A DNA stretch of 53,680 nucleotides from sequence record SRR20825006_1644; one strand, written 5' to 3'. The position numbers and the translations under genes were made by a program. Under the pieces are notes generated by a model. It made no database searches. It worked only from the letters and a program-made list of their open reading frames with translations, and was not told where the DNA came from. Positions within the stretch are counted from its first letter, which is position 1, and every line of letters begins with the position of its first letter. This document shows positions 10,378 through 49,695 of this stretch, piece after piece.

Positions 10378-11031
10378 TCAAGGTTTAATCAGTCCCAGCA
10401 CCACCGCAATATTGGCCAGTTCAGCTGCTGTATTCACTTTGAGTTTGCTCTTAATCTGGGTGTTGTAATTCGCCACAGTTTTGTAACCCAGATGCAGATC
10501 ATTGGCTACGGCATGGGCAGTCATGCCCTTGGCCAGTCGACAAAACACATCGAATTCCCGTGGTGACAATAAATCCACAACTTCACGGTAATGCTCGATA
10601 TCCATGTGTCGCACATCATCGACTTCAGGCAAAAGCTTCTGTTCAATATACTGCTTGCCTTCAGCAACGGCTTTTACGGCCTCGGCCAAAACTTCGGCTG
10701 CACTGTTTTTGCTGACATAGCCTTTGGCGCCGGCCTGCAGTGCGCGCTCTACATAGATCGCTTCATCATGAATGCTGTAAACCAGTACAACGGCTTTAGC
10801 GTCCTGTTTATGCAGGCGGCGAATCGTTTCTAAACCGCCGATGCCCGGCATGGATAAATCCATCACTACGACGTCGGGTTGCAGACGTTCGTATTCCTGC
10901 GCCACCACTTCACCGCGATTAACATCTTTGATATCGCCAATAAAGGGCTCTGCTGACAGCAGAATACGGAAGCCGGCACGGACCACTTCATGGTCATCCA
11001 CCAGCAGAACACTGATATTATTATTCGTCAT
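10378..11031 (-). CDS. NarL/LuxR-family response regulator (MoxX/MxcE-like)
   Basis: REC domain (LVDDH, VMDLSMPG, GYVSK) plus LuxR HTH (LSPREFDV...KTVANY...KLKV); overlaps the kinase stop codon. Confidence 0.9.
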   Translation of the reverse strand: MTNNNISVLLVDDHEVVRAGFRILLSAEPFIGDIKDVNRGEVVAQEYERLQPDVVVMDLSMPGIGGLETIRRLHKQDAKAVVLVYSIHDEAIYVERALQAGAKGYVSKNSAAEVLAEAVKAVAEGKQYIEQKLLPEVDDVRHMDIEHYREVVDLLSPREFDVFCRLAKGMTAHAVANDLHLGYKTVANYNTQIKSKLKVNTAAELANIAVVLGLIKP

Positions 11032-12355
11032 TATTTCTCTCTATGAACGGCATCCAGGCCCTAACTCTTACCCCTACGCCGGGGTTAGATTCAAACGCAA
11101 ACTGGCCCCCCATACTCTCGACCCGCTCCCGCATGCCCAGAATACCGAACCCCTCTCCATCAGTTGAACCGCCGACCCCATCATCCTCGACCCTGACAAG
11201 TACTTGTTCCTGCCCTTTGATGATATGCCGCCTCACCGTCACCCTGGCTTTGCCTGCCTCTGAATGGCGGACGACGTTGGTCAGACACTCCTGAACGATG
11301 CGATAGACATGAATCGCTACCTCCTCATCCAGCCAGTCCACTGCCTCGTCATAATTAAGATCGATTTCCAGCGAGGGATGCCGACGCTGCCATTCAGTGA
11401 CCAAATCCGTCAGGGTGGCAGCCAGCCCGAGATCACTCAGACTCAATGGATGCAGGGTACGCATCATGGAACGAACCACGACCGCCAGATGATTACAGAT
11501 ATCAATAATTGAATCGGCAATCTCGTTAATTCTGGCCTGCGGCTGCTTGGTGGCTACGGCCATTGCTTTCACAGCAGTCAGCGACTGTCCCATTTCGTCA
11601 TGCAGTTCCCGTGACATGGTCTGCCGTTCATTTTCCTGAATATGCATGGTATGTCTGGCAAGTGCCTGGTTGTTCTGTCTGGCGGTGTTTAACGCCTCTG
11701 AGAGGTTATTAACTTCAGCAGCAATCGCATCAAACTCGCTGATTTTAAAATTAGGTAGTTTTTTACCGTACTCACCGCTCTCTACCCTTCTGAGACCAGC
11801 GAGAATGGCATGCACACTTCTCAGCATTGACTGAAACACGATATTGATGGCAATAAAAATGACTGTCATCATCAATACAATTGACCAGAAAAAAGCCAGT
11901 GATTCGCTCCAGGCTTCAGCAATTTCATCTATCGGATCAGCACGAATCAGAATGGTTTTGGTTGTGCCGTCCATCAGACGAATATCGTAACTGGCTGACG
12001 GATAATCAGTTGTCACGGCCATTTTGAACCAGGCTGGTGGCATCTCCTCCTGTTCTTCTGTCGTTTCATCTGATAGCCACTCACTTTCAGTACCGTCATC
12101 ATTCACCAGACTGATGTGAATGTGCCGTGTTTGCTGAATGGTGCTGAGCTGACGCATCCAATGCTGCTCACTGACCATGCGATTGGCCGGGTAACTGAAG
12201 CTCAGATCAATCATCTGCAAAGCCAGATTAAAGGAAGAATTAATTTCCTTTTCTACCGACTGGCGGGCCTGCCAGATGGCCATCAGCCCACCAATGATCA
12301 AAATCAACACAACTGAGAGAACAATCCTAGCATTGATCAGGCCTCGTAAACTCAT
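11021..12355 (-). CDS. NarX-type sensor histidine kinase, MoxY/MxaY/MxcQ-like
   Basis: Two TM segments around a periplasmic domain resembling LapD/MoxY_N (MSLR...ARQSVEKEINSS), then HAMP, HisKA_3 (SRELHDEMGQSLT) and HATPase (QECLTNVVRH, DDGVG, GFGILGMRER). Confidence 0.88.
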   Translation of the reverse strand: MSLRGLINARIVLSVVLILIIGGLMAIWQARQSVEKEINSSFNLALQMIDLSFSYPANRMVSEQHWMRQLSTIQQTRHIHISLVNDDGTESEWLSDETTEEQEEMPPAWFKMAVTTDYPSASYDIRLMDGTTKTILIRADPIDEIAEAWSESLAFFWSIVLMMTVIFIAINIVFQSMLRSVHAILAGLRRVESGEYGKKLPNFKISEFDAIAAEVNNLSEALNTARQNNQALARHTMHIQENERQTMSRELHDEMGQSLTAVKAMAVATKQPQARINEIADSIIDICNHLAVVVRSMMRTLHPLSLSDLGLAATLTDLVTEWQRRHPSLEIDLNYDEAVDWLDEEVAIHVYRIVQECLTNVVRHSEAGKARVTVRRHIIKGQEQVLVRVEDDGVGGSTDGEGFGILGMRERVESMGGQFAFESNPGVGVRVRAWMPFIERNNDE

Positions 12356-12361
12356 TGAAAC

Positions 12362-14605
12362 CTACCTGAAACCATTAATGTCACTCATCATATCGTCAAA
12401 TGGCTGGTCTGATACCAGATAGATCATTGATGAGGCATCATCACTGCCAACAGGCCCCAGTCGCCCGCTGTCCATCGCCGAAGCAAGCCAGCTTCCATTA
12501 AGCTCTTCACGTTTCAGTTCAATGACCTTGTCCGAACGGTTAAATAAAGAGACGGCAGTCACGTAGACATTGTGACGTCGCCAGCTCTCCAGCGGCACCG
12601 TTTTAATGGCGGGTTCCGCAAACAATCCTGCAGCAACCGGAATGGCTCTGAGTGATTCATAAGCACTGTCTTCTGCCCGTTGCACATCCGGCGATCTGAT
12701 TTTTTGAGCCGCATAATTGGTCATGTCACGGAAGGCTTCGGCCTGATAGGGTTGCGGGATGATTTCACTCTCCTCTGCCGCTTTATCCACGTTAATAAAC
12801 TTATTATCAAACTCCTGTGACTGCGGGTGCTTCTGATTGTAGTCACGATAAAAGCGATTTTCTGTGGTACGCAGTGATTCACTGTCCTCCGGCACATTCA
12901 TCACCCGGGGGGTAATCAGGAGCACGGTCTCGGTTTCCTGTTCACTCTCTGACGTTGATCGGAACACCCTTCCCAGTACAGGAATTTCACTGAGAATTGG
13001 TACCTTGCGTTCATTCTTGTTGGTACTGGTTCTGATAAGACCGCCGACTGCGACAGTCAGGCCATCTTTGGCCATGACCGTACCTGTCAATCTGGCTGTG
13101 TCTACCGTATCTACCGGTAGATTCTGAACCGAACCGGTTCCATCTGTTATCGGTACTGTGCCGCCTCCGGGGTTAACTGTGGAATTTTCCTGTTCGATTA
13201 AGAGTTCCACGGTTTCATCACCGTTGATTCTTGGCGTGATCCTAAGTGTAATACCAATATCTTCACGATTGATAATCGCCTGCACATAAGAAGGTTGAAC
13301 GACCACACCGTTATCAATGATCGCGGGGAAGAAGTCGAAACCTTCCGTTAATAAGGTTTCTTCACCGATAAACAGCTCGGCCTGACGGTGATTCGACGCG
13401 ACAATCATCGGATTAGAAAGCACCCGGATACGGTTATTCTCTTCCAGGAACTGCAGGTTGGCTCTTAGGCGGCTGTTCAAAAACTCATACACCAAGGTGC
13501 CGTTATTCAAGAGCGCATTATTACCTAACAGCGTGGGTTGCTGGGATTCATTAGCACCACTTGGTTGAATACTGAAATTGAAAATGGAGTTGAAATCTTC
13601 CCCCAGAATCACGCTCAAAATGCGCATCTCCAGCATGACCTGGGGAACAGGAATATCCATCCTGTCGATCAATTGTCTGATGCCTTTGAGCACAGACTTA
13701 TCGTCCGAACGCACCACCAGCATATTGTGTTCGTTATTGACCGTCACATAAATAGGCTGGGATTGAACCGTCGCTTGCTGCAGGGCTTCCTGGCTGACAT
13801 TTCTGCTGCCGGACTGCTCAAGCGCGGCAGCGATTTGTTCGATTTGATCGACCGTCAAGTCATCGCCTTCGAGCTGAGCGCCTGATTGTGTCAGATTGTT
13901 TTGTCCAAAATTGCTTCTGCTACTTCTGCCGCGACTGGAACTGCTCCGGTTGGAACGGGTATTTCTGACTGTGCTATTACCGCCACGAACACTACTAAAA
14001 CCGCCACCCCGGTTCAGGCCACTCGCAGCACTACCATTCCCGGTTCCGAAGCTATTCGATGCCGGCGGTAAGCCGTAGGATAAAATCACCCGCTGACCAA
14101 ACAGATCCTCAATGGCCTGAGCAATAATCAGGACATTGGCATTCAGTAAACGGAAGATTTCAATATTTTCACTCTCGCGAACAATCAGATCTTTGCTGTA
14201 CTGTTCACGGGTCATTATCCGGAATGTGTCGGTATCATCATCATAGCGATACCACAGATCACTGATACGACTGATGGATTTGACGGCATCCAGGACAGTC
14301 ACATTTTTAAGATGAATGGTGACCTGTTTCTGTGCCGCTTCCGGCGTAGCGATGATATTCTGGCGACTCAGCTCCGACAGCGTCCGAACCACATCACTGA
14401 TATTACTACCGGTAAATTCGACCTCTTTAATTCGTGTCGTATTATCCGGGTTGTCTAGAACAGGTCGAGCCGGTATCGGTTGCGGGCGCTCTGCAATGAA
14501 AGGCTGATTAGCAGCAGCCCGGTCTTGCGTTTCAGCCGACACCGGGCTGACAACCATCAGGCCCGCGAGTAAAAAGCTTTTTTTTATTGATTTCATATAA
14601 CTCAT
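12362..14605 (-). CDS. Secretin (GspD/PilQ family) with C-terminal DUF3438-like extension
   Basis: Signal peptide, N-domains and secretin core (QVMLEMRI, LSNPMIVASNHRQAELFIG, GITLRITPRIN, VGGLI, KVPILSEIPVLGRVF, LLITPRV), followed by about 170 extra residues. Confidence 0.9.
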   Translation of the reverse strand: MSYMKSIKKSFLLAGLMVVSPVSAETQDRAAANQPFIAERPQPIPARPVLDNPDNTTRIKEVEFTGSNISDVVRTLSELSRQNIIATPEAAQKQVTIHLKNVTVLDAVKSISRISDLWYRYDDDTDTFRIMTREQYSKDLIVRESENIEIFRLLNANVLIIAQAIEDLFGQRVILSYGLPPASNSFGTGNGSAASGLNRGGGFSSVRGGNSTVRNTRSNRSSSSRGRSSRSNFGQNNLTQSGAQLEGDDLTVDQIEQIAAALEQSGSRNVSQEALQQATVQSQPIYVTVNNEHNMLVVRSDDKSVLKGIRQLIDRMDIPVPQVMLEMRILSVILGEDFNSIFNFSIQPSGANESQQPTLLGNNALLNNGTLVYEFLNSRLRANLQFLEENNRIRVLSNPMIVASNHRQAELFIGEETLLTEGFDFFPAIIDNGVVVQPSYVQAIINREDIGITLRITPRINGDETVELLIEQENSTVNPGGGTVPITDGTGSVQNLPVDTVDTARLTGTVMAKDGLTVAVGGLIRTSTNKNERKVPILSEIPVLGRVFRSTSESEQETETVLLITPRVMNVPEDSESLRTTENRFYRDYNQKHPQSQEFDNKFINVDKAAEESEIIPQPYQAEAFRDMTNYAAQKIRSPDVQRAEDSAYESLRAIPVAAGLFAEPAIKTVPLESWRRHNVYVTAVSLFNRSDKVIELKREELNGSWLASAMDSGRLGPVGSDDASSMIYLVSDQPFDDMMSDINGFR

Positions 14606-15039
14606 CTTAAAACGCGTATACGACCCAATGTTCCGGTCTCAATCGTGATACTCAGGCGGGAAATCTCGGAAATACGAATTGCATTGGCAGGTTGCCGAGG
14701 ATCGATGTTGATCTCGTCCCCTTCTCGCACCATAAAAACGCCTTTTCCCGTGATCTCAAGCAATGCAAGCTGTTCTTGCGCCCCTTCAGGCGTGACAAAA
14801 CCTCTGAGCCGCATCTGGGGTATTTTGATATCAATATCATCGGGAGCAGGCCGAAAACCAAACGCATCAGAATCAATATTGGCCACTGTTCCGGCTTGTT
14901 CATACATCAAGGCACTGGGCGAGAATGGATCACGGATGAATGTTCTATCCGCACTGTTGGCCTGGGACAGGTCGTTGGCAGAAACCACGGTGATGACAGG
15001 TAATAAACTTGCCATCATTATTTTTATAAAAAATTTCAT
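14602..15039 (-). CDS. Exported PilP/GspC-HR-like assembly protein
   Basis: Signal peptide, RDPF motif and beta-rich C-terminus (LRGFV...ALLEI...VREGDEI); immediately upstream of the secretin. Start set at MKFFIK after an AGGA Shine-Dalgarno. Confidence 0.6.
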   Translation of the reverse strand: MKFFIKIMMASLLPVITVVSANDLSQANSADRTFIRDPFSPSALMYEQAGTVANIDSDAFGFRPAPDDIDIKIPQMRLRGFVTPEGAQEQLALLEITGKGVFMVREGDEINIDPRQPANAIRISEISRLSITIETGTLGRIRVLR

Positions 15040-15055
15040 TATGCTTTCCTGCTGG

Positions 15056-16270
15056 TTATGCTGCGAGGGCAAATAGCGCCTGAAAAAAGGCGTAGTAAAC
15101 AAACCCAACCATGCCACCAATCACCAGGATCATGGCTGGCTCGATCATTGCTGAAAGTCGTTTAATACCTATTTCAAGTAAGTTTTGATAATAAATGCCC
15201 AACTCCTGTTGAATTCGATCCAGGGAACCGGTTCTTTCCCCAATAGCGATCATGTGCGTTACCAGAGACGGCATCTGTGGATGCTGAATACTACTGGCAA
15301 GATCACGACCAGACATGACGCTATTTGACGCCTGCTTCAGCTTGTCTGAATAAATCTTGTTCGCTATCAGGTCTGCCGTTATTTTCAATGTGTCAAAAAT
15401 GGTAATACCGCTTCGCATCAGGATAGAAGAAGCCCAATTCAGTTGAGCCATAGAACCGAAAACGATCAGCTTCCCAAACACAGGTACGCTAAGGAGGACA
15501 CGATCAATCCAGCGGCGACCTTTATAAGTCCTGTAGGTAATAAATATGAGGATGATGATGGCGATGCTGACACCAATGATGGTGAGCCCGTTCTCTCTGA
15601 GAAAGGCAGCGCCATCGATCAGTGCCTGGGTCGAATCCGGCAGACGTTTGCCCCGCCCTTGGATAAACTGAGCAAATTTGGGAATAATCATCACGACCAT
15701 AAACACTGCCACACCAATCGCGGCAAGAATCACCACAACTGGATAAATCATCGCGTTAATCATTTGTTTACGTAGTTGCGATTTCTTTTCCAGATGAATC
15801 GCCAGCCGCTCCATGATGACATCCAGTTCACCGGTACTTTCACCGGCAACAACCAGGTTGATGGCGATATTGGGAAATACATCTGGATGTTTACCCAGTG
15901 CCGAGGACAAAGATTGTCCGGCTTCAATATCACGATGCATTTTTCGCAATGCCAGGTTCAGCCGTGGGCTACTCACTTGCGTTGCTGCAAGTTGTAGACA
16001 CTCAGCCAACGGAAGGCCTGCTCTGAGCATGAAGGCCATTTGTCTGTAAAAGAAAATAAGGGCATCCGTGGAAACCGAACGCTGGGTCGCATACCAGTCA
16101 CTGAAATTTTCTTCACCCAGAAAACCACTCCGGCGTCTTTCTTTGATATCAAGAACACGCAGACCTTCGGTGCGTAATGCCTGAGCAACAGCATTGGTAT
16201 TGTCAGCCTGCATTTTGCCTGAAAGCTCTTCACCGGTTCGGCTCAGTGCCTGATAAGCAAACATGGGCAT
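15056..16270 (-). CDS. Inner-membrane platform protein (GspF/PilC family)
   Basis: FAYQA, RQMAFMLRAGLPL, AGESTGELD, AMIYP, GERTGSLD and IEPAMI motifs. Confidence 0.93.
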   Translation of the reverse strand: MPMFAYQALSRTGEELSGKMQADNTNAVAQALRTEGLRVLDIKERRRSGFLGEENFSDWYATQRSVSTDALIFFYRQMAFMLRAGLPLAECLQLAATQVSSPRLNLALRKMHRDIEAGQSLSSALGKHPDVFPNIAINLVVAGESTGELDVIMERLAIHLEKKSQLRKQMINAMIYPVVVILAAIGVAVFMVVMIIPKFAQFIQGRGKRLPDSTQALIDGAAFLRENGLTIIGVSIAIIILIFITYRTYKGRRWIDRVLLSVPVFGKLIVFGSMAQLNWASSILMRSGITIFDTLKITADLIANKIYSDKLKQASNSVMSGRDLASSIQHPQMPSLVTHMIAIGERTGSLDRIQQELGIYYQNLLEIGIKRLSAMIEPAMILVIGGMVGFVYYAFFQALFALAA

Positions 16271-16271
16271 C

Positions 16272-17915
16272 TCAGCTCACCTCCGCTGTGTCATAACGTT
16301 TAAACACGGCAACATCACGAACCTCATCCAGGGTGGTGAGCCCTCTTAATACTTTTTCGCAGCCGTCTTCCCACATAAATTTCAGCGCTTTACCCGCATT
16401 CGCCTCTAAGGTTTCCTCATCAGCGCCTTTTGACACCATCCTGGCGAGCCGCTCATTGAACCATAAGGTTTCGAACAGACCAAGGCGTCCCCTGAAGCCC
16501 TGTCCCTGACAAACTGCGCAGCCCACAGGTTCAAAAATTTCAACCTCGTCTTCCACCCCCAGTAACACGCGCTCGTCCTCATTAGCTGGTCTTGCTTTAG
16601 CACAATGACGACAAAGACGTCTGACAAGACGCTGGGCAATCACTGCTGTCATGGTGGAACCAATCAGAAAGGGTTCACAACCAATATCTACCAGACGAGT
16701 CACAGCACTGACGGCATTGTTGGTATGCAGGGTAGAAAATACGAGGTGACCCGTCATCGCCGCTTTAACCGCAACATCAGCTGTTTCAGAATCACGAATC
16801 TCACCCACCATGAGAACATCCGGGTCATGTCGAAGCAGAGAACGCAAAGCATCGGCAAAATTGATTTTGGGGCCGGTCTGTATTTGCGAAATACCATCGA
16901 TGACATATTCGATCGGGTTTTCAACCGTCATGATATTAATATCAGGATGGTTGATTTCCTGTAGTGCCGCGCACAAGGTTGTCGATTTACCGCTTCCGGT
17001 CGGACCGGTCAGCAAAATCATGCCATAAGGTTTACGAATGGCCTGCTTGAACTCGAGCAGATCATTTTCCAGAAAGCCAAGATCAGTCAGGGTCAAACTG
17101 CTACTCTCACTGCCTAATAAACGCATGGTGATCCGTTCACCAAGTCGGGTAGGCGCAGTCGCTACACGAATGTTGAACTCCATACCGACCGGTGCCGCAA
17201 GATGATAGGAAAAGCCGCCATCTTGGGGCATCCGTTGTTCAGATATATCCAGGCCTGACAATACTTTCACCCTGGAAATCAAGCCTGCCGCCACAGACTG
17301 ATCGGCGTCCAATGGATAATCAGTCAACTTACCATCAACCCTGAAACGGATTCGTAGTCCCTCTTCCTCAGTCATCAAATGGACGTCTGAAGCCCGGTTG
17401 AGATAGGCGTCTCTGAGAACATGATCCAAGACAGCCACCAAGTCTGTCTCTGAGGCACTACTCTCATTGGCCTGAGCCACGGCCGTATTGGCTAGAACTT
17501 TTTTTACAACCAGACGGATACGCTCAGGATCACTCATCGTGACCGGCAGGGCATCACCGACCAGTCGCAGTGCAGAATCAATAGATACCCGATCAGTTGG
17601 ATCACTGATAACCAGCATATCTTCGCCAGCCACAGTCATGACCAGCATTTGCTTGCGGTTGATCAGACTGGATGGCAGTTTTTTAGTCAGCACTGAATTC
17701 AGTTTCGCATCATTCAGGTCAACAAATTGAATACCTTGCTCTTCAGCCAATGCCCGATGCATTGCCGATACAGGCAAACGATAATGTGCCAGTAATTTTG
17801 ACACTAAAGGCACACGTTCTCTTCTGGCAATCAGACGCAGCTGTTCCACGGTCGATTCTTCAATCAGCCCAGTTTGTACCCCTGCCCTTATCAGTTGTTC
17901 ATCTCTGACAGCCAT
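16272..17915 (-). CDS. Assembly ATPase (GspE/PilB family)
   Basis: ASDVH, RFRVDG, Walker A GPTGSGKST, LRHDPDVLMVGEIRD, TGHLVFSTLHTN and tetracysteine CRHC...CAVC. Confidence 0.95.
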   Translation of the reverse strand: MAVRDEQLIRAGVQTGLIEESTVEQLRLIARRERVPLVSKLLAHYRLPVSAMHRALAEEQGIQFVDLNDAKLNSVLTKKLPSSLINRKQMLVMTVAGEDMLVISDPTDRVSIDSALRLVGDALPVTMSDPERIRLVVKKVLANTAVAQANESSASETDLVAVLDHVLRDAYLNRASDVHLMTEEEGLRIRFRVDGKLTDYPLDADQSVAAGLISRVKVLSGLDISEQRMPQDGGFSYHLAAPVGMEFNIRVATAPTRLGERITMRLLGSESSSLTLTDLGFLENDLLEFKQAIRKPYGMILLTGPTGSGKSTTLCAALQEINHPDINIMTVENPIEYVIDGISQIQTGPKINFADALRSLLRHDPDVLMVGEIRDSETADVAVKAAMTGHLVFSTLHTNNAVSAVTRLVDIGCEPFLIGSTMTAVIAQRLVRRLCRHCAKARPANEDERVLLGVEDEVEIFEPVGCAVCQGQGFRGRLGLFETLWFNERLARMVSKGADEETLEANAGKALKFMWEDGCEKVLRGLTTLDEVRDVAVFKRYDTAEVS

Positions 17916-17924
17916 GGAAAACCT

Positions 17925-18581
17925 TTAAAGCGCTAAAATCATTTCAGTCTTAAGCATTTGGGAACTGCCCCTGAAGGGCGAGATTTCCAGTTTATCGATA
18001 TTCAGACGAATGACCGTGACTTGATAAGGAAGCTCATCGAGACCATGAATGAAGCGCCTTAGAGCGAGATAACTGCCATCGACTTCGAGGCGTTGCAGTG
18101 GTCGCTGAAACATCGACCCGGGGGACATACGTGTAATCCAACCGGTGGTGACGGGTGGAATGATTTCGTTGTCATCATTTCCACGCCGGTTGTTGTTTTT
18201 AAGTGGCTGCGGGCGCAAAGCCTCATTGACCCTAATCCTGATGCCACTATCACGAGCCAGTTCAGAAATCTTAACCTTCAATTCCTGTGAATCGACCGGA
18301 GCCAACTGCTGTTCGATCTGTACCGCGCTCTCGCGAATCGCATCGAGGGCTTTTTGCTGATCCTCCAGCTCCCGTTTGATTTCATCTATCCCCTCTTGTG
18401 GTTCAGTCGGAATTTCCATCTTGGCTAGGCGATTCAGCGTCGCATCTTTTTGCTGGTCAAGACTCTGTATGTTCTCCAGTCGAGGCTCGAAACGCAGAAG
18501 ACCATAACCACCAAGAACAATGACCAGTAGTATAATGCCGGCAAGTGCGCGTTCCCGATTATTGAGCTGTTTCAGTTTCAT
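17925..18581 (-). CDS. PilO/GspM-like alignment protein
   Basis: LNNRER followed by a single TM, coiled coil and ferredoxin-like C-terminus (GSYLALRRFIHGLDELP). Confidence 0.7.
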   Translation of the reverse strand: MKLKQLNNRERALAGIILLVIVLGGYGLLRFEPRLENIQSLDQQKDATLNRLAKMEIPTEPQEGIDEIKRELEDQQKALDAIRESAVQIEQQLAPVDSQELKVKISELARDSGIRIRVNEALRPQPLKNNNRRGNDDNEIIPPVTTGWITRMSPGSMFQRPLQRLEVDGSYLALRRFIHGLDELPYQVTVIRLNIDKLEISPFRGSSQMLKTEMILAL

Positions 18582-20335
18582 GCTTGTTTATCCTCAACTG
18601 CAGATTGGGGAATCACACGCACCAAACTCATTGAGACCGAGTAACCCGCCAGGTTCATCGGGCCGGTTTTTTCTGCCACCTGAATATCTCTCACTTCCAT
18701 ATCCCATGCAGCAACAGAAAGCTTCATATTCTGCACAAACTCCTGAGCTGCACTCTCTGTGAGCGCCCAGGCATCAATATTGAAATTATCGGTTTCCACA
18801 ACCCCAGGCTTGTTGAGCGGCGTAGCAGCAGGCTGTACGGTAGCACGACGGCCCATTTCATCAACACGACTAACGATAATCTGTTCGTTGATATTGTTCT
18901 GCAGTACCCCCAGGATGGCTTGTACCAGTAGCGCTCTTTCTGGGAGCGACTGACCGAAAAACTCGAGTCTGGCTTCCATCCGTCGCTGGCTTTCTTTTTG
19001 TTCTTTCAGCTCGGCTTTTTGCTTATCAATCGCTTCACGTTGCTTTTTGATGCGATCCACCGCCGTATCCAGCACCTCGGCCCGCTCATCGATCTCCGCT
19101 TTTTCTTTGCTGATAGCCGCATATTGGACCGACATAGTGACTTCAGAAATAACGATCAGGACCAGCATCGCTGCCACTAAAGCGGCGGCTTGTGTTTCAG
19201 TTCGATGCCAGGTTGGCGGCAAGGGGCCGCCCGGCCTCACGGAACTGATTTTTCTGGCCCCTTTCAGACCAAAAAAGAGTCTTCCGGCAGCAAACATGCC
19301 CGGAGACAACCCATCTCTGTCATCGAACATGACAAGGTCTGGCTCACTGGCGAGTGCCGAGCCCAGACTGCCGCGAAGACCTGGCAAGCTCTCTGGGGGC
19401 GCAGCCAGCACTACACCGGGATGCTGGGTATTCTCAGCATGGAAAACCTCCAGGCAGGCATCCAGCATAGACGCACTGCGGTTGACGTAATGCTGAACGG
19501 AAACAATATGATCCCGTTTCAGGTGGGAGGAGGTGGTAATGAACTCGGTAGTTTCCAGTAAGACAAGATGTTTTTCTGCGCGATCGATCAGCGCTACGCT
19601 GTTACCTGTCAGCGGCATAAGACCGTCCAGTTGAAGCTTGTAGTCCTGACAGAGCTCTTGCCACTTACTGAGCACAGATTGATGGGTCGCTGTGGTCAGC
19701 CAGTTCCACACGCCAGGAGCATCATCGACTTCTCCCTGTGCCGACCATCCACACTGGACCTCATCATCTTCCCCCCGGAGCCAGTCCTGAACCACAAAAA
19801 GTGACTGCGCCTGTTCACGTGTCACATAACCAAGCTCCAAGGCCACTTCACCAAACCGCCTACCGCGCTCGCCTTTTATGACTTCCTGTTTCAGCTGTTT
19901 CTGTGCCTGATTAATTTCCAGCACCTGCTCTGGTGACAGCATGCCGTGAGACTCCATCAACTGTCCCAGCGTCCACTGCAACTGATGTTGCATTAAAAGC
20001 GGTTCGACTTCCCAGCGAATCAACTCATGCATTTGATTGATAGGCTTGGGCTTTTTGGGTGATACGGGCAGTTCAACCAACGCAGACATCACTGATGGTG
20101 TCAGCACGATGATATGCTTTCCTTGCCAGCCCTGGGTTCTTAGAGAACTCAGAATCTGACTGAAAGCCACAGCCGGATCAATACTTTCTGAACTTGCTGT
20201 CGCCTGAACCTGGAGCTTTTTGCCCGCCTTGTTGAACACCGCAGCCTGCATCGACAGGCCCGTCCATTCACAGACCATGACGTTGTTCGGCCGCATTGCG
20301 CTTAATTTATCGGTCAGTTGTTTAAACTTCATCAT
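18578..20335 (-). CDS. PilM/PilN (GspL-like) fusion protein with inserted MshEN-like motif pair
   Basis: Cytoplasmic N-terminal part with PilM-like LP...ELIRWEVEPLL, one TM near residue 390, then coiled coil and PilN-like periplasmic end; operon position fits. Confidence 0.62.
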   Translation of the reverse strand: MMKFKQLTDKLSAMRPNNVMVCEWTGLSMQAAVFNKAGKKLQVQATASSESIDPAVAFSQILSSLRTQGWQGKHIIVLTPSVMSALVELPVSPKKPKPINQMHELIRWEVEPLLMQHQLQWTLGQLMESHGMLSPEQVLEINQAQKQLKQEVIKGERGRRFGEVALELGYVTREQAQSLFVVQDWLRGEDDEVQCGWSAQGEVDDAPGVWNWLTTATHQSVLSKWQELCQDYKLQLDGLMPLTGNSVALIDRAEKHLVLLETTEFITTSSHLKRDHIVSVQHYVNRSASMLDACLEVFHAENTQHPGVVLAAPPESLPGLRGSLGSALASEPDLVMFDDRDGLSPGMFAAGRLFFGLKGARKISSVRPGGPLPPTWHRTETQAAALVAAMLVLIVISEVTMSVQYAAISKEKAEIDERAEVLDTAVDRIKKQREAIDKQKAELKEQKESQRRMEARLEFFGQSLPERALLVQAILGVLQNNINEQIIVSRVDEMGRRATVQPAATPLNKPGVVETDNFNIDAWALTESAAQEFVQNMKLSVAAWDMEVRDIQVAEKTGPMNLAGYSVSMSLVRVIPQSAVEDKQA

Positions 20336-21402
20336 GGTTCAATATTCCAGCGGATTGGTCCGAGTTGCTGCCTGGGCAGGACCATTACCGTGTAAGGTGA
20401 GCTTGTCATTTCAGGGCAGCTTGTAGGCGGTGTTGCCGAGCTGTCGTCACAGCGGGTACTGACGATGTAATAACCTGCGGGCAATTTATCTGAAAACGCG
20501 GTTGAGGATGAGACAGCAACGGTATATTCATATATACCCCGTGCAGGAATGCTTGAACCCGGGGGGGTAAAAGTAAAATCACTGGCGTAGGCATTGGGAT
20601 CACCACTGCTTTTTGCCAACGTAACTGTCCACTCAAGACTGTTATCGAGATTTGATATGGCACTTGCTGCAGAGGTATTAACAAATCGAATATTGAAGCT
20701 ACTGGGGGCAAGCCAGTCATCTGCCACAATCAAATCGTCATTTCCCAAGGGCGGGTAGTCGTCGGCGGTAGAGCTCAGATCATAGCCGTCGCTGTAGAGA
20801 TAAAATATTTCTGCAGGTGGGTTAATCGGTGCAGTAATGGGTGCCGAATATTCGGTACCCGATTCAGCCAGTGTGACGGCCCAGCCATAATTGGGATCTG
20901 TCGGGTTGTTGCCATTCTGATAACCGTCTCTGAAACGTCGAACACCATCCTGCTCTGGATTAGTCTGGATATACGGACCATACCAGCCTGTGCGGACACC
21001 ACTTGCTGTGACTGTGGGCTTCAGCAATTCCAGCGATTCATCACAGGGCGAAATGTAAAAGCCGGGAGAGCTGGCGCTCAGAGTGAGATCAAAGGGCGAT
21101 GCGACAAGCTCTGCCAGACAATAGGGCAATCTGCCATTATCAACGACAAAGCCCGCCAATTCCGGCTGACCATTCACGACACGCTCCGTACTACGGATAA
21201 TCGCATCACGGATTATTGCCTGTCGACGCTGCGTTTCATTGAAATAGGCCTCATCCTGCTGACCTTCGGTGAACAATAAGCCAGCAGAGGCCAGAAGCCC
21301 CATCAGAAAAAGAACCAGAACTAACTCAAGTAGAGTAAAACCTTTTTGATAAGCTTGATTGAAATATCGCATGCGAGTCCTTTCAATCAGCGCATCAGGC
21401 AC
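20332..21402 (-). CDS. Large minor pilin/pseudopilin
   Basis: Class III signal QKG/FTLLELVLVLFLMGLLA; GWYGPYI motif. Confidence 0.85.
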   Translation of the reverse strand: MPDALIERTRMRYFNQAYQKGFTLLELVLVLFLMGLLASAGLLFTEGQQDEAYFNETQRRQAIIRDAIIRSTERVVNGQPELAGFVVDNGRLPYCLAELVASPFDLTLSASSPGFYISPCDESLELLKPTVTASGVRTGWYGPYIQTNPEQDGVRRFRDGYQNGNNPTDPNYGWAVTLAESGTEYSAPITAPINPPAEIFYLYSDGYDLSSTADDYPPLGNDDLIVADDWLAPSSFNIRFVNTSAASAISNLDNSLEWTVTLAKSSGDPNAYASDFTFTPPGSSIPARGIYEYTVAVSSSTAFSDKLPAGYYIVSTRCDDSSATPPTSCPEMTSSPYTVMVLPRQQLGPIRWNIEP

Positions 21403-22223
21403 AGGATAAGGTCATCGCCTTCGGCGATGCAGGGGTCATTGCCAGTGACCGGGTTGGCATCGTAATCAGGATCAATAACACCATCAGGGCCGGGGCTGAT
21501 AATCCGGGCAGTATCGGCTGGCAGAATATGATCAGCTGCTACAAATCCAGCATCTGAAGGCGTGAGACACTCATACAAATCACCGGTAACGTCATAGTTA
21601 TCACCGCCGCTGTTGACCAGGCATCGATAACGCGCACCATAAGTCAGTTCCGGGGCCAGCAGGATATAAGCATTTCCCCAGCTGTCAGTCAGCCCCTCTT
21701 TACTGATATATGCGCCATTCCAGCCTTGCTGCGTGCTGCTATTCCAGAGCAGGAAATCAAACGCTGCAATGTCGAAGGGAAATTGATTAAGCATCACCAG
21801 TGCGTTGGAGGCAACAGGTTCACCTGCACTATTGTTATAGTCTTCCTGACACCAATCCTGCCATGCGGCGGCATCTGACGGAACGGGCGTTAGATCAAAC
21901 CCGCTAGTAAAGTCGATGTGATTTTCATGGGCGTTAACGTCGTTGACGGTATTTGGACTGAAATCACCCTGGCGATAGACCATGCAGGGCAACTCACGAT
22001 TGTCACGACGAAACTGTAATAAGGCCTTTTGCAGCTCTGCCATTTCCAGTCGAGTCACATTCTCCCGGGCCTGGTCTTCATTGCCATCAAAAGCATTAAT
22101 AGCGGCAATACTGACGATACCCAGCAAAACGATGACAAGCAGAATTTCGACCAGTGTGAAACCGGTCTGATAACTAGATGAGAAATTTGCTTTGTTTGGT
22201 CGGTCAAACAATAAAAACCACAT
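21387..22223 (-). CDS. GspG-like pseudopilin with insertions
   Basis: QTG/FTLVEILLVIVLLGIV; GspG-type WNGAYI..DSWGNAY, SPGPDG and terminal GDDL. Confidence 0.85.
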   Translation of the reverse strand: MWFLLFDRPNKANFSSSYQTGFTLVEILLVIVLLGIVSIAAINAFDGNEDQARENVTRLEMAELQKALLQFRRDNRELPCMVYRQGDFSPNTVNDVNAHENHIDFTSGFDLTPVPSDAAAWQDWCQEDYNNSAGEPVASNALVMLNQFPFDIAAFDFLLWNSSTQQGWNGAYISKEGLTDSWGNAYILLAPELTYGARYRCLVNSGGDNYDVTGDLYECLTPSDAGFVAADHILPADTARIISPGPDGVIDPDYDANPVTGNDPCIAEGDDLILCLMR

Positions 22224-22348
22224 TTACTTGTTCCCGATAATAATTTTATTCAGTGACGTGTAACGCACACCCTCTTCAACGCTGCATATCATCCTGTTCA
22301 TACAAAACGTTCTGGCAATAAGATTTATTGACGCAACGTTCTAAGATT

Positions 22349-22374
22349 AAGAAAGGGCGGGCAAAGCCCGCCCC
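22349..22374 (-). terminator. Intrinsic terminator/attenuator after the major pilin
   Basis: Minus strand GGGCGGGC-TTT-GCCCGCCC-TTTCTT. Confidence 0.8.
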
Positions 22375-22397
22375 TGTTATGGCATCTCTATGCGAGA

Positions 22398-23399
22398 TTA
22401 TTGCTGAGCTTCAGACACCAGTTGGTCGATGTTTTTACCATCAGGAGAGACGATAGCAATCAGACGAATAGTTTCATTCCACTGCATTTCGTTTACATCA
22501 AAGTTAAATTCACCAGCTTGGAACAGACCGATGTAACGCGAATAGTGAGTTTCTGGGTTAACTTCAGTGTCTTCATCACCAGTGTTTCGTACATAAGTTG
22601 GTGATTGAGCGATTGCAACATTACTGAAAGTGGTAGATGCTGCAGCATCACCACCAAAGCCTAATGCAATCAGGACATGGCATTCGTCACCTTCTAATGC
22701 GTCACCATACTGGTTCTGCAGGTTGTTACCAGATACAGTCACAGTAGTATCAAATGCATTTGCTGGGTAATCTACCAGGGCAGTAGCTGCACCACCTGCT
22801 TGACAGTTGTCGTTAGGAACAACAGCAAATCTGGCAGGTAAATCACCATCCTCTATTTCGACCTCAGCAGAGTCACCGGTACTCTCGTTGTGGAAACGGT
22901 TTGGTGCTTGATCCCCATTTGGCGTGCCACCAGCGTTCACGACTTGCAGTTCTTCAATGCCAGACTCTTCAAGCATTTCGATCATTGCATCACCTTTACC
23001 GCTATCACCAGATACACCAGGTGTCCATGCAGCGAGGAAAGAATCCATGATTGGCGCTCTGAAAGTCAATTGTGAACCCGCAGAATCCACCAAATTATCC
23101 CATTGGTTAGGGTAAACATTTTCAACCGCACGATAAGTACGGATAGCACGGTCAATAGTCGCTGCGGCGTTACCGGCAGAGGCGGCTTCTGCTGACTGAC
23201 CCACATCTTCGTAGGCAATCAGCGCACCCGTGGCCAAAATGGCGATCAGGGTGATAACAACCAGCAGCTCCAACAGGGTGAAGCCTTTTTCTTTACCTTG
23301 CAGGCTTTGTGCTTTGTTACGCAGTTTTGCGTCTTTGATGACTGACAAATCCGCTTTACGGAATTTGGCAATCGCCGATTTCATTTGGTTAATATTCAT
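22398..23399 (-). CDS. Probable major pilin (large, acidic, long leader)
   Basis: EKG/FTLLELLVVITLIAILA class III signal after a 39-aa leader; first pilin of the cluster and followed by a terminator. Confidence 0.85.
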   Translation of the reverse strand: MNINQMKSAIAKFRKADLSVIKDAKLRNKAQSLQGKEKGFTLLELLVVITLIAILATGALIAYEDVGQSAEAASAGNAAATIDRAIRTYRAVENVYPNQWDNLVDSAGSQLTFRAPIMDSFLAAWTPGVSGDSGKGDAMIEMLEESGIEELQVVNAGGTPNGDQAPNRFHNESTGDSAEVEIEDGDLPARFAVVPNDNCQAGGAATALVDYPANAFDTTVTVSGNNLQNQYGDALEGDECHVLIALGFGGDAAASTTFSNVAIAQSPTYVRNTGDEDTEVNPETHYSRYIGLFQAGEFNFDVNEMQWNETIRLIAIVSPDGKNIDQLVSEAQQ

Positions 23400-23921: not shown

Positions 23922-25685
23922 TTATTCCGCTGGTTTATATGGATCCTGCAGAATAATCAGGATAGGCAGCAGCTGGTTCTGCTGTTTTTTAATGACCTGC
24001 GCCAATACAAAACGATGATAGACCTCGCGGTATTCCGGGAACTGCTTGATTGCCATACGAATCATCTTCTGCGCTTCAACCGGTTTATTATTCATCGCCA
24101 GCAGGTAGGCATGGGTATAGGTTTCAACACGACCCGGCCAGTTTTCAATGACTTGCTGGCTGATAATTAGCTTATCTTTCAACAGCCCCGGCTGGTTGGG
24201 CAGTACTCGGACCAGGAAATTATCAGCAACCGGGGTAAAGACCGAGGTTTCCCTGAGCTGGTAGAGCTTTTCAAGGTTTTTATCGATTTCCGACTGCGGC
24301 AAACCTTCTTCACGTAATGACGTAAGCGTGGTTTCCAGCTGATGGTAGTTGGTCTGCAAACTGCCCAGAGACCAGACGGCAAAGATAAATATCACCAGAA
24401 AGAAAACCGGTGCCAGATTAAACCGGACCTGAAGCGGACGCTCAGAACCCAGGCCCAATAGCAGGCTGGCTATCGCCAGGAAGGTCATGTACCACAGTGG
24501 ATACTCCAGCATGCTGTGAATGCCGATTACCGACAACAGTGCCAGCAGCCACCAACGCTCGGCCGTCATTTGGCTCTGAAACTGCTCTCTGAACCAGTAC
24601 AGCATACCGATCGTCAGAATCAGCGCGCCGACGATGCCGGTTTCTGCAAGCAACTGCAGAATCAGATTATGGGCATGGTGCCAGAGTCCTTTCAGGGACG
24701 GATAGGATTCGGTAATGGAAAAGTTATACCAGGAGAACTCTGCCCAGCCGGCGCCAAGCCAAGAGTGCTGTTTGAATAAAAGCCAGGCTTGCTCAATCAG
24801 GATTAAACGGCTCGACTCGCTGCCCATGGTCTGCACCAGGCGTTCTGCAGGCATTTTGGCGGGTTCCAGAAAGGCAAGCAGCGGAACGATGAACTGGGCA
24901 GCGATAAAGCCCGGAATCAACCAGAGCAGCATGATCGGTTTTATCGCTGTTGGCTGATTGTATGAAAACGTTCTGGCTAGTAACCAGCCGCCTACAGAGA
25001 GTAATGCCACATAAAGGATAGCCATCCGCTGACCACCCTGGGCAAAGCCTATCAGAATCAGGGCGCTGATCAGGACAGTGATGACGGTATTGATCCGCCC
25101 AGTGAGCCGGAGGTATAGCAGTGAAGCCAGCCCCAGCGCGAGATAGTTGGAAAAATGGTTAGCCTGGCCGATATTGCCGGATTTGCCACCCAGTATCCAT
25201 TTGGCAAACACACTCTCATCAGGAAGAAGTTTGCCAATAGGCAGCAGAATCATGATGAGCGTAGCACCCACCACAAAAGCCCAGGCAATCGTCGGTACGA
25301 TTCTTTCCAATGACAGAGAGTGCTTTAGGTTGGCGGCAAGAATCATCAGTAATGCTGTCATCCCGAGATAAAGCATAGCGACAAATTGATTCTGCCAGTA
25401 ATCCGGCACTCCAAGGGCTACCTGTAAACCCAGAACGACAATTAAGCCCAGTGGAACAAAAGTTACTGGCGGGATTTGAAGTTTTTCCTGTCTGTGACCA
25501 ATTAAAAAAAGGCTGGCGAATACCGCCAGTAATGCGGCAAACCACTCGTTGTAAAAACTGGCTATCGGTGGCATGTGATACGGGGACAAGAACGGCACCA
25601 CACACATCAATGCCAGCATGAAAATACTGAAACTGGCAATGAGTGAACGTGGTTTATCGTCGTAGGAAGTTGCTGCTGCCGTCAT
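23922..25685 (-). CDS. pglL: PglL-family O-oligosaccharyltransferase (pilin glycosylation ligase)
   Basis: Multi-TM protein; GNIGQANHFSNYL, Wzy_C HAHNLILQLLAETG and HSMLEYPLWY signatures. Confidence 0.85.
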   Translation of the reverse strand: MTAAATSYDDKPRSLIASFSIFMLALMCVVPFLSPYHMPPIASFYNEWFAALLAVFASLFLIGHRQEKLQIPPVTFVPLGLIVVLGLQVALGVPDYWQNQFVAMLYLGMTALLMILAANLKHSLSLERIVPTIAWAFVVGATLIMILLPIGKLLPDESVFAKWILGGKSGNIGQANHFSNYLALGLASLLYLRLTGRINTVITVLISALILIGFAQGGQRMAILYVALLSVGGWLLARTFSYNQPTAIKPIMLLWLIPGFIAAQFIVPLLAFLEPAKMPAERLVQTMGSESSRLILIEQAWLLFKQHSWLGAGWAEFSWYNFSITESYPSLKGLWHHAHNLILQLLAETGIVGALILTIGMLYWFREQFQSQMTAERWWLLALLSVIGIHSMLEYPLWYMTFLAIASLLLGLGSERPLQVRFNLAPVFFLVIFIFAVWSLGSLQTNYHQLETTLTSLREEGLPQSEIDKNLEKLYQLRETSVFTPVADNFLVRVLPNQPGLLKDKLIISQQVIENWPGRVETYTHAYLLAMNNKPVEAQKMIRMAIKQFPEYREVYHRFVLAQVIKKQQNQLLPILIILQDPYKPAE

Positions 25686-48558: not shown

Positions 48559-49662
48559 TCAGTTGAGAATCAATTCATCGTCGTCATCATTGTCCATTGC
48601 TCCCTCGCCAAGCCGAATGGCGAGACTGAGGTCATTACGAGAGTCCGCGTTCTGCAAGGCTTCTTCCAGCGTAATTTGACCGTCCTTGTATAGCTTGATC
48701 AGCGCCTTATCAAAGGTGATCGTACCTGGATCGGTCGATTCTTTCATCGCATCTTTAATGCTGCCAACTTCGCCTTTATTAATGAGTTCAGAGATATACG
48801 GCGTATTGAGCATGATCTCAACAGCGGGCACCCGTGCGCTGCCATCAACCGTCGGCAACAAGCGCTGCGACACAATGGCTCGCAGGTTCAGCGACATATC
48901 CATGAACAACTGGCGGTGCAGCGTTTCCGGGAAGAAGTTGATAATACGATCCAGGGCCTGGTTGGCATTATTGGAGTGCAGCGTGGCCAGACACAGGTGA
49001 CCAGTCTCGGCATAGTTGATGGCGTGCTTCATCGTTTCCATGTCCCGGATCTCACCAATCAGAATGACATCCGGTGCTTCACGTAGCGCGTTCTTCAGTG
49101 CATTCTCATAATTAAGCGTATCAATGCCGACTTCGCGTTGCTGCACAATGGAACGCTCATGGGCATGCACAAATTCCAGCGGATCTTCAATAGTCAGAAT
49201 GTGTGAGCTGGAATTGCGATTACGGTGGCCTATCATTGACGCCAGCGTAGTAGACTTACCGGAGCCCGTGGCCCCCACCACCAGAATCAGACCGCGTTTT
49301 TCCATCACGATATCGCCCAGCACCGGCGGCAGATTCATTTCATCGAAGCGTGGAATTTTGGTTTTTATGTAACGGATGACAATCGAACATTCACCGCGCT
49401 GACGGAAAATATTGACCCGGAAACGGCCGACGCCCTTCAGCGGCACGGCAAAGTTCATTTCCAGTGTTCTCTCAAACTCAGCGGCCTGGTCTTCGTTCAT
49501 CAGCGTATAGGCCATTTCATGGACATCACCCGGAGCCAGCTTCTGGGTACCGACAGGTCGAATCACACCCTGAATTTTGATGTGAGGTTCGGTGCCGGTA
49601 CAAAAGAACATATCCGAGGCTTCTTTGTCCGCCATCAACCTGAAATAGGGTGTCATATCCAC
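48559..49662 (-). CDS. pilU: PilT/PilU-family retraction ATPase (PilU-like)
   Basis: GATGSGKST, QREVGIDT, LREAPDVILIGEIRD and AETGHLCLATLH; MDMSLNL resembles PilU rather than the PilT AIRNLIRE motif. Confidence 0.85.
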   Translation of the reverse strand: MDMTPYFRLMADKEASDMFFCTGTEPHIKIQGVIRPVGTQKLAPGDVHEMAYTLMNEDQAAEFERTLEMNFAVPLKGVGRFRVNIFRQRGECSIVIRYIKTKIPRFDEMNLPPVLGDIVMEKRGLILVVGATGSGKSTTLASMIGHRNRNSSSHILTIEDPLEFVHAHERSIVQQREVGIDTLNYENALKNALREAPDVILIGEIRDMETMKHAINYAETGHLCLATLHSNNANQALDRIINFFPETLHRQLFMDMSLNLRAIVSQRLLPTVDGSARVPAVEIMLNTPYISELINKGEVGSIKDAMKESTDPGTITFDKALIKLYKDGQITLEEALQNADSRNDLSLAIRLGEGAMDNDDDDELILN

Positions 49663-49695
49663 GTAGCTTATCCTCAGTATTCTCTATCTGCTTAA

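Follow-up and report, generated by a model that had tools for sequence, protein, structure and literature searches.

A secretin of a type IV filament operon with a TraK/IceB9-like C-terminal domain

How secretins are targeted to the outer membrane and stabilised there is understood for a few systems: pairs of an S-domain and its pilotin, liposecretins and AMIN domains. For many secretins we know of no helper. In established secretin structures, the chain emerges from the pore domain on the outer face of the barrel, close to the inner leaflet of the outer membrane. Pilotins are located there, as are S-domains, which are short helical segments. The secretin discussed here carries something different at this end. 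It is encoded in a stretch of 53,680 nucleotides from sequence record SRR20825006_1644 (the whole stretch is called the window), and its last part, here called the tail, is homologous to the C-terminal half of DUF3438 proteins belonging to integrative and conjugative elements (ICEs) and resembles by its predicted fold the C-terminal domain of TraK.

TraK belongs to the outer-membrane core complex of F-type type IV secretion systems (T4SS). Its C-terminal domain comprises Y136-N238, and the outer ring contains 26 copies, which are paired (Liu et al. 2022, PMC8770708). Amin et al. 2021 (PMC8617172) liken the N-terminal sandwich of TraK to the C-terminal domain of the classical VirB9. In their account, the TraK C-terminal domains make up the lobes of the outer layer, bound together by two TraV chains (PMC8617172); the C-terminal domains of TraV, a lipoprotein, are sandwiched between the TraK pairs, with a helix of TraK in a groove of TraV (PMC8770708). 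It is the N-proximal helix by which the C-terminal domain of TraK clamps that of TraV (PMC8770708, PMC8617172). A review also cites an old suggestion by which one end of TraK is S-domain-like and binds a lipoprotein (PMC7555446).

The second relative is IceB9, the VirB9 analog of ICEclc, encoded by orf64584 (310 aa, “TraK superfamily/pfam11920”; Daveri et al. 2023, PMC10018362). Its deletion abolishes the transfer of ICEclc, and the foci formed by the lipoprotein IceB7 (conj_PilL/DotD-like) depend on it (PMC10018362). A first-pass annotation of the window, made from the letters alone, had called DUF3438 proteins putative outer-membrane core components of T4SS; as IceB9 is a DUF3438 protein and a needed part of the outer-membrane complex in the T4SS of ICEclc, the published work bears this out (PMC10018362). 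Table 1 of the same paper lists IceB7 as a conj_PilL/STN (N0-fold) lipoprotein and orf73029 as structurally PilP-like. Such secretin-system-like parts in ICEclc mean that the sharing of modules between this T4SS class and secretin systems may go both ways.

The secretin and its tail

The gene and its parts are as follows.

12362..14605, minus strand: secretin gene, 747 aa (open reading frame and Pfam Secretin PF00263)
14213..14434, minus strand: N0/STN-like N-terminal domain, residues 58-131 (pLDDT 93-95, strands and helices alternating)
13865..14065, minus strand: disordered linker rich in Gly, Ser, Asn and Arg, residues 181-247 (67 residues; pLDDT 33-43)
12899..13447, minus strand: secretin pore domain, residues 387-569 (PF00263, E 4.5e-36; long beta hairpins in the AlphaFold2 model)
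12830..12889, minus strand: pair of short helices that follows the last strand of the barrel, residues 573-592 (by DSSP, full-length model)
12752..12817, minus strand: low-confidence linker from core to tail, residues 597-618 (pLDDT <50 for 597-620; dN/dS 0.118)
12377..12751, minus strand: tail domain like TraK_C and the IceB9 C-half, residues 619-743 (Pfam, NCBIfam, AlphaFold2, VIA-align and Foldseek)

The full secretin matches Pfam DUF3438 (PF11920) with residues 611-737, which align to model positions 116-239 of 252 (E 4.2e-12, 46.5 bits). The last 152 residues scanned alone yield E 3.4e-13 and 50 bits, the curated gathering score being 25. TIGR03749 of NCBIfam (“integrating conjugative element protein”) is matched over model positions 120-257 of 259 with 63-66 bits. 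This remains under the whole-protein cut-off of 138.8, since only half of the model is present; a full-length DUF3438 protein, which has an N-half and a C-half and scores above 138.8, the tail is not. By these profiles, the tail is homologous, far beyond chance, to the C-terminal half of the DUF3438/TIGR03749 proteins of ICEs. Invariant or almost so in the secretin and the ICE forms are the helix motif (LT.YAA, with A632), W675, G704, W706, Y729 and F736.

The first-pass annotation had recognised this match. The reading frame and the motifs it quoted, MTNYAAQ, PLESWRRHNVYVTAVSLFNRS and YLVSDQPF, are all present, and the profile searches agree with it (50 bits against 25 for Pfam, 63-66 bits for TIGR03749). 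Its span of 12362-12724 indeed corresponds to residues 628-747 plus the stop codon. The folded domain, however, is slightly wider according to the AlphaFold models (12377-12751, residues 619-743).

An AlphaFold2 (AF2) model of the last 152 residues, built from an alignment of 149 rows, has a mean pLDDT of 83.5 and a pTM of 0.77, and in the folded part, 619-743, the pLDDT is 84-96. It predicts a helix (619-637), a small beta domain and a terminal helix. With Foldseek, two entries of the PDB were found at E <= 0.001, 7spb_C1 (2.7e-5, probability 1.00) and 7oko_3 (1.9e-4), the next one being at 0.03; both are chains of about 217 residues from the F/pED208 outer-membrane core complex. VIA-align singled out the same chain: among 48,161 chains, 7spb_C1 was the sole one with Z >= 8 (Z 9.5, rmsd 2.8 Å over 104 residues, chain positions 132-241), followed by Z 5.6. 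From chain length and residue range we infer that this chain is TraK. Because 132-241 is its C-terminal domain, the tail corresponds to the TraV-clamping lobe and not to the VirB9-type sandwich. The fold matched no known secretin accessory domain, and the DUF3438 match is significant, so that on both counts the first-pass reading stands.

By sequence, the relation to TraK is seen in relatives of the tail: Pfam TraK_C (PF23536) is matched by 32 of the 148 family members (E <= 0.1; best E 7.3e-6). A profile of the tail family found no match at E <= 10 among the sequences of solved structures, and a look-up of the tail in the ESM Atlas gave no usable match.

The tail is also conserved. Values of dN/dS can be quoted for the window and locus L001 only, the sole pair with unsaturated synonymous sites: the tail has 0.031, the core 0.016, the N0-N1 region 0.017 and the linker 0.118. 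In a set of 16 sequences dS was saturated, and the filter was passed by 3-19 of 120 pairs, which differed from partition to partition. In more distant pairs, the dN of the tail is about twice that of the core. These rates show that the tail is under purifying selection.

The rest of the protein is a secretin. PF00263 covers residues 387-569 (E 4.5e-36, 124.4 bits against a cut-off of 27.5), and the 747-aa protein matches 22 solved secretins, best of all GspD of type II secretion systems (T2SS) and PilQ of type IV pili, at E 8e-19 or weaker. All NCBIfam equivalogs stay below their cut-offs: GspD TIGR02517 with 148.8 against 351.35 bits, PilQ TIGR02515 with 115.8 against 284.35 and MshL TIGR02519 with 94.9 against 250.2. 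Judged by these models, the secretin belongs to none of the named subfamilies. Its N-terminus looks by eye like a signal peptide and has no Cys lipobox. The Pfam models STN (E 0.029) and Secretin_N remain under their cut-offs in the N-terminal part, where AF2 predicts, with high pLDDT, an N0-like fold (58-131) and an N-domain-like fold (285-334). The linker 181-247 parts the N0-N1 region from the pore-proximal N-domain, and its length and sequence vary widely among close relatives (alignment A1).

The full-length AF2 model (pLDDT 73, pTM 0.43) shows, in this order, the barrel, the helices at 573-592, a stretch with pLDDT <50 (597-620) and the confident tail. As the low stretch lies between two confident parts, the tail is considered a folded module on a flexible tether of about 25 residues. 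The helices at 573-592 contain the motif NRFY..YN, which is conserved in tail-less orthologs as well; they are possibly S-domain-like, in addition to the tail.

Distribution, origin and loss of the tail

An exhaustive phmmer search with the tail against 1.84 billion representatives gave 300 matches (E <= 1e-3), the best 150 of them being considered here. Among the matches listed, all 19 long proteins (538-923 aa), which are distant representatives, consist of a secretin plus the DUF3438 C-half; two shorter fragments share this architecture, and five shorter proteins that were checked are full-length DUF3438 only. A search with the tail alone among proteins of 410-1308 aa found PF00263 and PF11920 together in each of 32 matches. 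A search with the core alone gave both domains in 115 of the best 120 of 281 matches (E <= 1e-20), five lacking the tail. When our own core HMM was applied to the 149 rows of the tail alignment, 28 had a secretin core, 93 were ICE-type and 28, the query tail among them, were too short; Pfam Secretin is found in 28 of 148 family members.

At the level of genomes, PF11920 was found in 39 of 400 scored genomes of one class (G253 remained unscored; the tally takes in G146, flagged unpublished). In 34 the protein is ICE-type, and in five (G001, G003, G231, G345 and, weakly, G331) only the C-half is present, in frames of 757-804 aa. In genome G153 (contig C5, 209570-210261), an ICE-type DUF3438 gene appears to be split into three parts, one of the matches having an internal TGA; it has the looks of an ICE copy in decay, next to others that are intact. 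Three fusion loci (L042, L043 and L044) keep the order ATPase, platform protein, secretin with tail; the 172-aa gene that precedes the secretin in the window was detected in L043 and L044, not in L042.

The secretin-tail fusion is, by all these comparisons, real, old and widespread. The architecture is already on record in databases, as precomputed Pfam architectures and under NCBI names: several members from Methylophaga, Psychrobium and Colwellia are labelled “DUF3438 family protein”, others “GspD”. In the literature searched, which did not extend to subscription journals and supplements, no paper describing the fusion was found; passages from PMC7555446 and PMC8770708 do not describe it. 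The window had been annotated as holding a chimera of two secretion families. As to homology this is correct. It is not, however, an oddity of one genome but the normal state of a whole secretin subfamily.

The history of the tail can be read in part from trees. The tail tree (149 rows, 119 columns, quick IQ-TREE) is unrooted, and with so few columns many of its forks are unresolved. One branch with an SH-aLRT of 95 separates 36 rows, namely 28 secretin tails including the window's own and eight fragments, from 113 rows, which comprise 93 ICE-type proteins, 19 fragments and one secretin tail (P0114). Two state changes suffice. P0114 is a metagenomic short PilQ/HofQ-like secretin of 578 aa, the tail of which reaches 132 bits on TIGR03749, is 52-59% identical to real IceB9 C-halves and is nested among ICE proteins. 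The core of P0114 shares 37-54% identity with secretins that stand alone, in open frames of 458-602 aa; a core and tail of that similarity in one frame were not seen in any sampled genome (the tally includes the unpublished G044 and G313). An assembly artefact was considered for P0114, the sole member of its 90% cluster, yet it is seen on three contigs, and this explanation was rejected.

In our reading of the tree, there was one old fusion, and at least one more arose separately and recently. A second independent fusion suggests that the combination of secretin and tail is useful. Since TraK and IceB9 are both two-domain proteins with an N- and a C-part, a transfer of the tail from T4SS to secretin appears more parsimonious than the opposite direction.

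There are also relatives without a tail. The 29 related loci considered here were fetched with the closer alignment A1, a set biased toward close relatives; 18 have the tail, always inside the secretin frame. In the other 11, which are nine Neptuniibacter loci, the metagenome-assembled genome (MAG) locus L016 and L025 (a truncated contig and thus not scorable), no tail was found in any frame, flanks of up to 10 kb on each side included, and a tail encoded as a separate gene was rejected on this ground. Nor was PF11920 found anywhere in the one Neptuniibacter genome searched. The tail-less secretins are 557-603 aa long in Neptuniibacter and 582 aa in L016, with the stop codon 20-60 residues past the NRFY motif. 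In a tree from core columns (61 rows, 345 columns), the 10 tail-less rows, of which P0241, on a contig of 2.2 kb, is possibly a truncated one, form small groups within an otherwise tail-bearing clade of 38 rows, and the sister clade of 20 rows is entirely tail-bearing. Three changes of the tail are needed on this tree, and its well-supported branches force at least two. Loss of the tail in the tail-less lineages is the simplest reading.

The operon and its surroundings

An operon on the minus strand ends with the secretin gene. In the order of transcription, it encodes a PglL-type O-oligosaccharyltransferase, three prepilins, proteins of 585 and 218 aa, an ATPase, a platform protein, a 172-aa exported protein and the secretin. 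A pair of regulatory genes follows.

23922-25685, minus strand: PglL/Wzy_C-type O-oligosaccharyltransferase, just upstream of the three pilin genes
20332..23399, minus strand: three prepilin-type (pseudo)pilins of 356, 278 and 333 aa (N_methyl in all, T2SSG in the 278-aa protein)
17925..20335, minus strand: genes for two proteins of 585 aa and 218 aa, family unknown (no family match above threshold; syntenic in all related loci)
16272..17915, minus strand: GspE/PilB-type assembly ATPase (T2SSE, E 3e-120; GspE 470 and PilB 463 bits, both under cut-off)
15056..16270, minus strand: GspF/PilC-type platform protein (T2SSF, E 9e-51; GspF and PilC models about 304 bits each, under their cut-offs)
14602..15120, minus strand: 172-aa exported protein, directly upstream of the secretin (no Pfam or NCBIfam match; PilP/GspC-like by position only)
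10378..12355, minus strand: sensor kinase with a LapD_MoxY_N periplasmic domain and LuxR-type response regulator (Pfam), directly downstream of the secretin

No component reaches the equivalog cut-off of a named system, be it T2SS, type IVa pilus, MSHA or Com, and the operon is therefore an unnamed type IV filament system. To judge from their position, the 585- and 218-aa proteins would stand in for alignment proteins of the PilM/N/O or GspL/M type. The place of the 172-aa gene is conserved in tail-bearing and tail-less loci. That of the O-oligosaccharyltransferase is kept in related loci, on the opposite strand in L043, and its vicinity to the pilin genes suggests that the pilins are glycosylated. 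Residues 8-149 of the ATPase weakly resemble the c-di-GMP-binding C-terminal region of NfrB (E 6e-5), which hints at a control of the machine by c-di-GMP.

The kinase and regulator genes lie 3' of the secretin in four of the five Methylophaga-titled loci mapped (L001, L004, L009 and L010) and in L044. They have no place in the fifth, L012, which is a MAG, in the MAG loci L016, L024, L029, L042 and L043, or in the Neptuniibacter loci mapped. This pair probably serves to regulate the operon specifically.

Otherwise the window consists of housekeeping chromosome (LptFG, ValS, SUF, enolase, PyrG, AccA and DnaE), and the locus has its closest relative in a Methylophaga MAG, with 95% identity in the secretin. 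Among the 42 open reading frames (ORFs) of the window scanned with Pfam (16 + 26), none was a conjugation gene, in line with the earlier statement that the window holds no other ICE genes. Between accA and dnaE (48559-51378, minus strand) lies a second pair of T2SSE-family ATPases, which is an orphan: genes for a pilin, a platform protein or a secretin do not adjoin it. One, of 367 aa, is PilT-like, and the other, of 560 aa, has an N-domain of the c-di-GMP-binding MshEN type.

Role of the tail and comparison with known systems

By what is known of secretins in general, the tail would hang by its flexible linker where the pore domain ends, in the periplasm, outside the barrel and just under the outer membrane. 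As there is one tail per subunit, a crown of lobes would surround the barrel. Such a crown could be a built-in module for assembly, anchoring or stabilisation, which grips neighbouring subunits or a partner in the envelope; the partner would be something other than the ICE lipoproteins. It would do here what an S-domain and its pilotin do for T2SS secretins and what the C-terminal lobes of TraK do for the outer ring of F-type systems. By this analogy, it is a plausible idea, about midway between doubtful and probable, that the TraK/IceB9-C-like tail acts as a built-in anchoring or stabilising crown around the secretin barrel of a type IV filament machine. Location, partner and role of the tail are inferred here.

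Several observations weigh against the idea of a crown. The AF2 model does not place the tail with confidence relative to the barrel (whole-protein pTM 0.43), and its location derives from the general knowledge on secretin structures. Selection on the tail was estimated from a single pair of loci. The window's own tail does not match TraK_C of Pfam even at E <= 10, and the link of this protein to TraK therefore runs via its fold and its relatives. Further, no partner presents itself. The ICE lipoproteins tied to IceB9, conj_PilL (TIGR03748) and TIGR03751, were found in none of four related Methylophaga genomes, which together with the one Neptuniibacter genome are the basis of all whole-genome statements made here. 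In an ICE-bearing control genome (G093), both were readily detected (E 6e-35 and 1e-47, respectively), TIGR03751 about 1.5 kb from the IceB9 gene. A lipobox scan of every ORF in the window picked up just two overlapping antisense frames within the 585-aa gene; in L042-L044 it returned one equally spurious frame and no credible lipoprotein gene. Finally, the nine Neptuniibacter loci and L016 run with a tail-less secretin, which implies that the tail is not essential in every lineage. The prediction of a complex of two tails yielded scores of 0.00 and 0.00, with the alignment unused and the fold of the partner uncertain, and speaks neither for nor against self-association.

The main variant is that the tail is a docking site for a separate lipoprotein pilotin, encoded elsewhere and not recognisably related to TraV, TIGR03751 or PilL. 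This would fit the clamping of TraV by TraK and the dependence of the IceB7 foci on IceB9 described above (PMC8770708, PMC8617172, PMC10018362), yeast two-hybrid data, quoted in a review, that map the binding of TraV to residues 124-237 of TraK (PMC7555446), and the conservation of the helix ahead of the beta domain in secretin tails. Yet the 53.7-kb window and L042-L044 have no lipobox ORF save the spurious antisense frames, and conj_PilL and TIGR03751 are missing from all four Methylophaga genomes with a working positive control; TraV (Pfam) was not searched for. We consider such a pilotin unlikely.

More doubtful still is a tail that serves in the periplasm as a receptor for something else than an assembly factor, e.g., for cargo, for a pilin or for a regulatory signal by which the machine is gated or recruited. 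The two-component system directly 3' of the secretin in most Methylophaga-type loci mapped could be taken in its favour. However, the sole structural relative of the tail is a ring component and not a receptor, a C-terminal extension would in general emerge outside the barrel and thus off the path of the substrate, and no candidate cargo gene is conserved beside the operon.

A coupling of the two machines, in which the tail plugs the chromosomal secretin into the T4SS of an incoming ICE, e.g., via IceB10 or IceB7, is very improbable. The tail is homologous to a domain of a T4SS core complex, and 34 of the 400 genomes sampled from the class do have ICE-type DUF3438 proteins. Against this, PF11920 matches the secretin alone in all four Methylophaga genomes, which lack ICE-type IceB9, PilL and TIGR03751. 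Moreover, the secretin tails form an old group of their own with 27-38% identity to the ICE proteins; one would not expect this of domains under a need to go on matching ICE partners. Since the host genomes lack ICE components, the tail works without them, TraV itself not having been searched for; the genome searches thus show it to be independent of any ICE. Hardly credible is a functionless remnant of an old ICE insertion fused in frame: some lineages without the tail keep the operon, but the conservation of the tail (dN/dS 0.031; kept in 115 of the best 120 homologs and also where the tail identity of relatives drops to about 27%), its confidently predicted fold and the lack of flanking ICE genes contradict it.

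A broader idea, which we put forward tentatively, is that the TraK_C/IceB9-C lobe is a portable crown module close to the outer membrane. It would be used on unrelated rings, VirB9-like ones and secretins, would contact a common feature of the envelope rather than a system-specific lipoprotein, and would have been joined to secretins at least twice. If so, the outer rings of T4SS and a secretin subfamily share part of their assembly logic, and the natural orthologs with and without tail are a ready system for finding the partner.

Irrespective of this, a built-in module that differs from the known helpers is carried by a whole subfamily of secretins, which occurs in many uncultured gammaproteobacteria as well as in Methylophaga, Colwellia and Psychrobium. 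The C-half of DUF3438 gains a structural identity as TraK_C-like, and two families of secretion systems are linked by a shared domain. With tail-bearing and tail-less orthologs of one and the same operon, a clean test by comparison and by genetics is at hand. The significance lies in the reuse of a module and in annotation, not in a new type of machine.

Compared with its tail-less orthologs, the secretin has a syntenic operon, a core that is 52-60% identical by best segment and the same NRFY motif after the barrel; the orthologs, however, end shortly after this motif and lack the tail. Compared with the S-domain/pilotin pairs (GspD-AspS, PulD-PulS), the tail is likewise a C-terminal addition to the pore domain, is presumed to lie outside the barrel under the outer membrane and, by analogy, may have a similar targeting or stabilising role. 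In contrast to an S-domain, it is a beta-rich domain of about 125 residues, without any relation in fold or sequence.

With IceB9 and the other DUF3438 proteins of MPF-G type ICEs the tail shares the homologous C-half, at 27-41% identity to many members. It differs in that the N-terminal half of that family is missing and that the gene resides in a chromosomal type IV filament operon, not in an ICE.

From the C-terminal domain of TraK (7SPB, 7OKO; PF23536) the tail differs in sequence, the identity being about 10-14%, and no TraV-like partner was found for it, TraV itself (Pfam) not having been searched for. In TraK, the domain follows a VirB9-like sandwich that builds a periplasmic ring, whereas in the secretin it follows the pore. 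What the two have in common is the build, a helix and then a small beta domain, and the place of this domain, which comes last in either protein, on a flexible linker.

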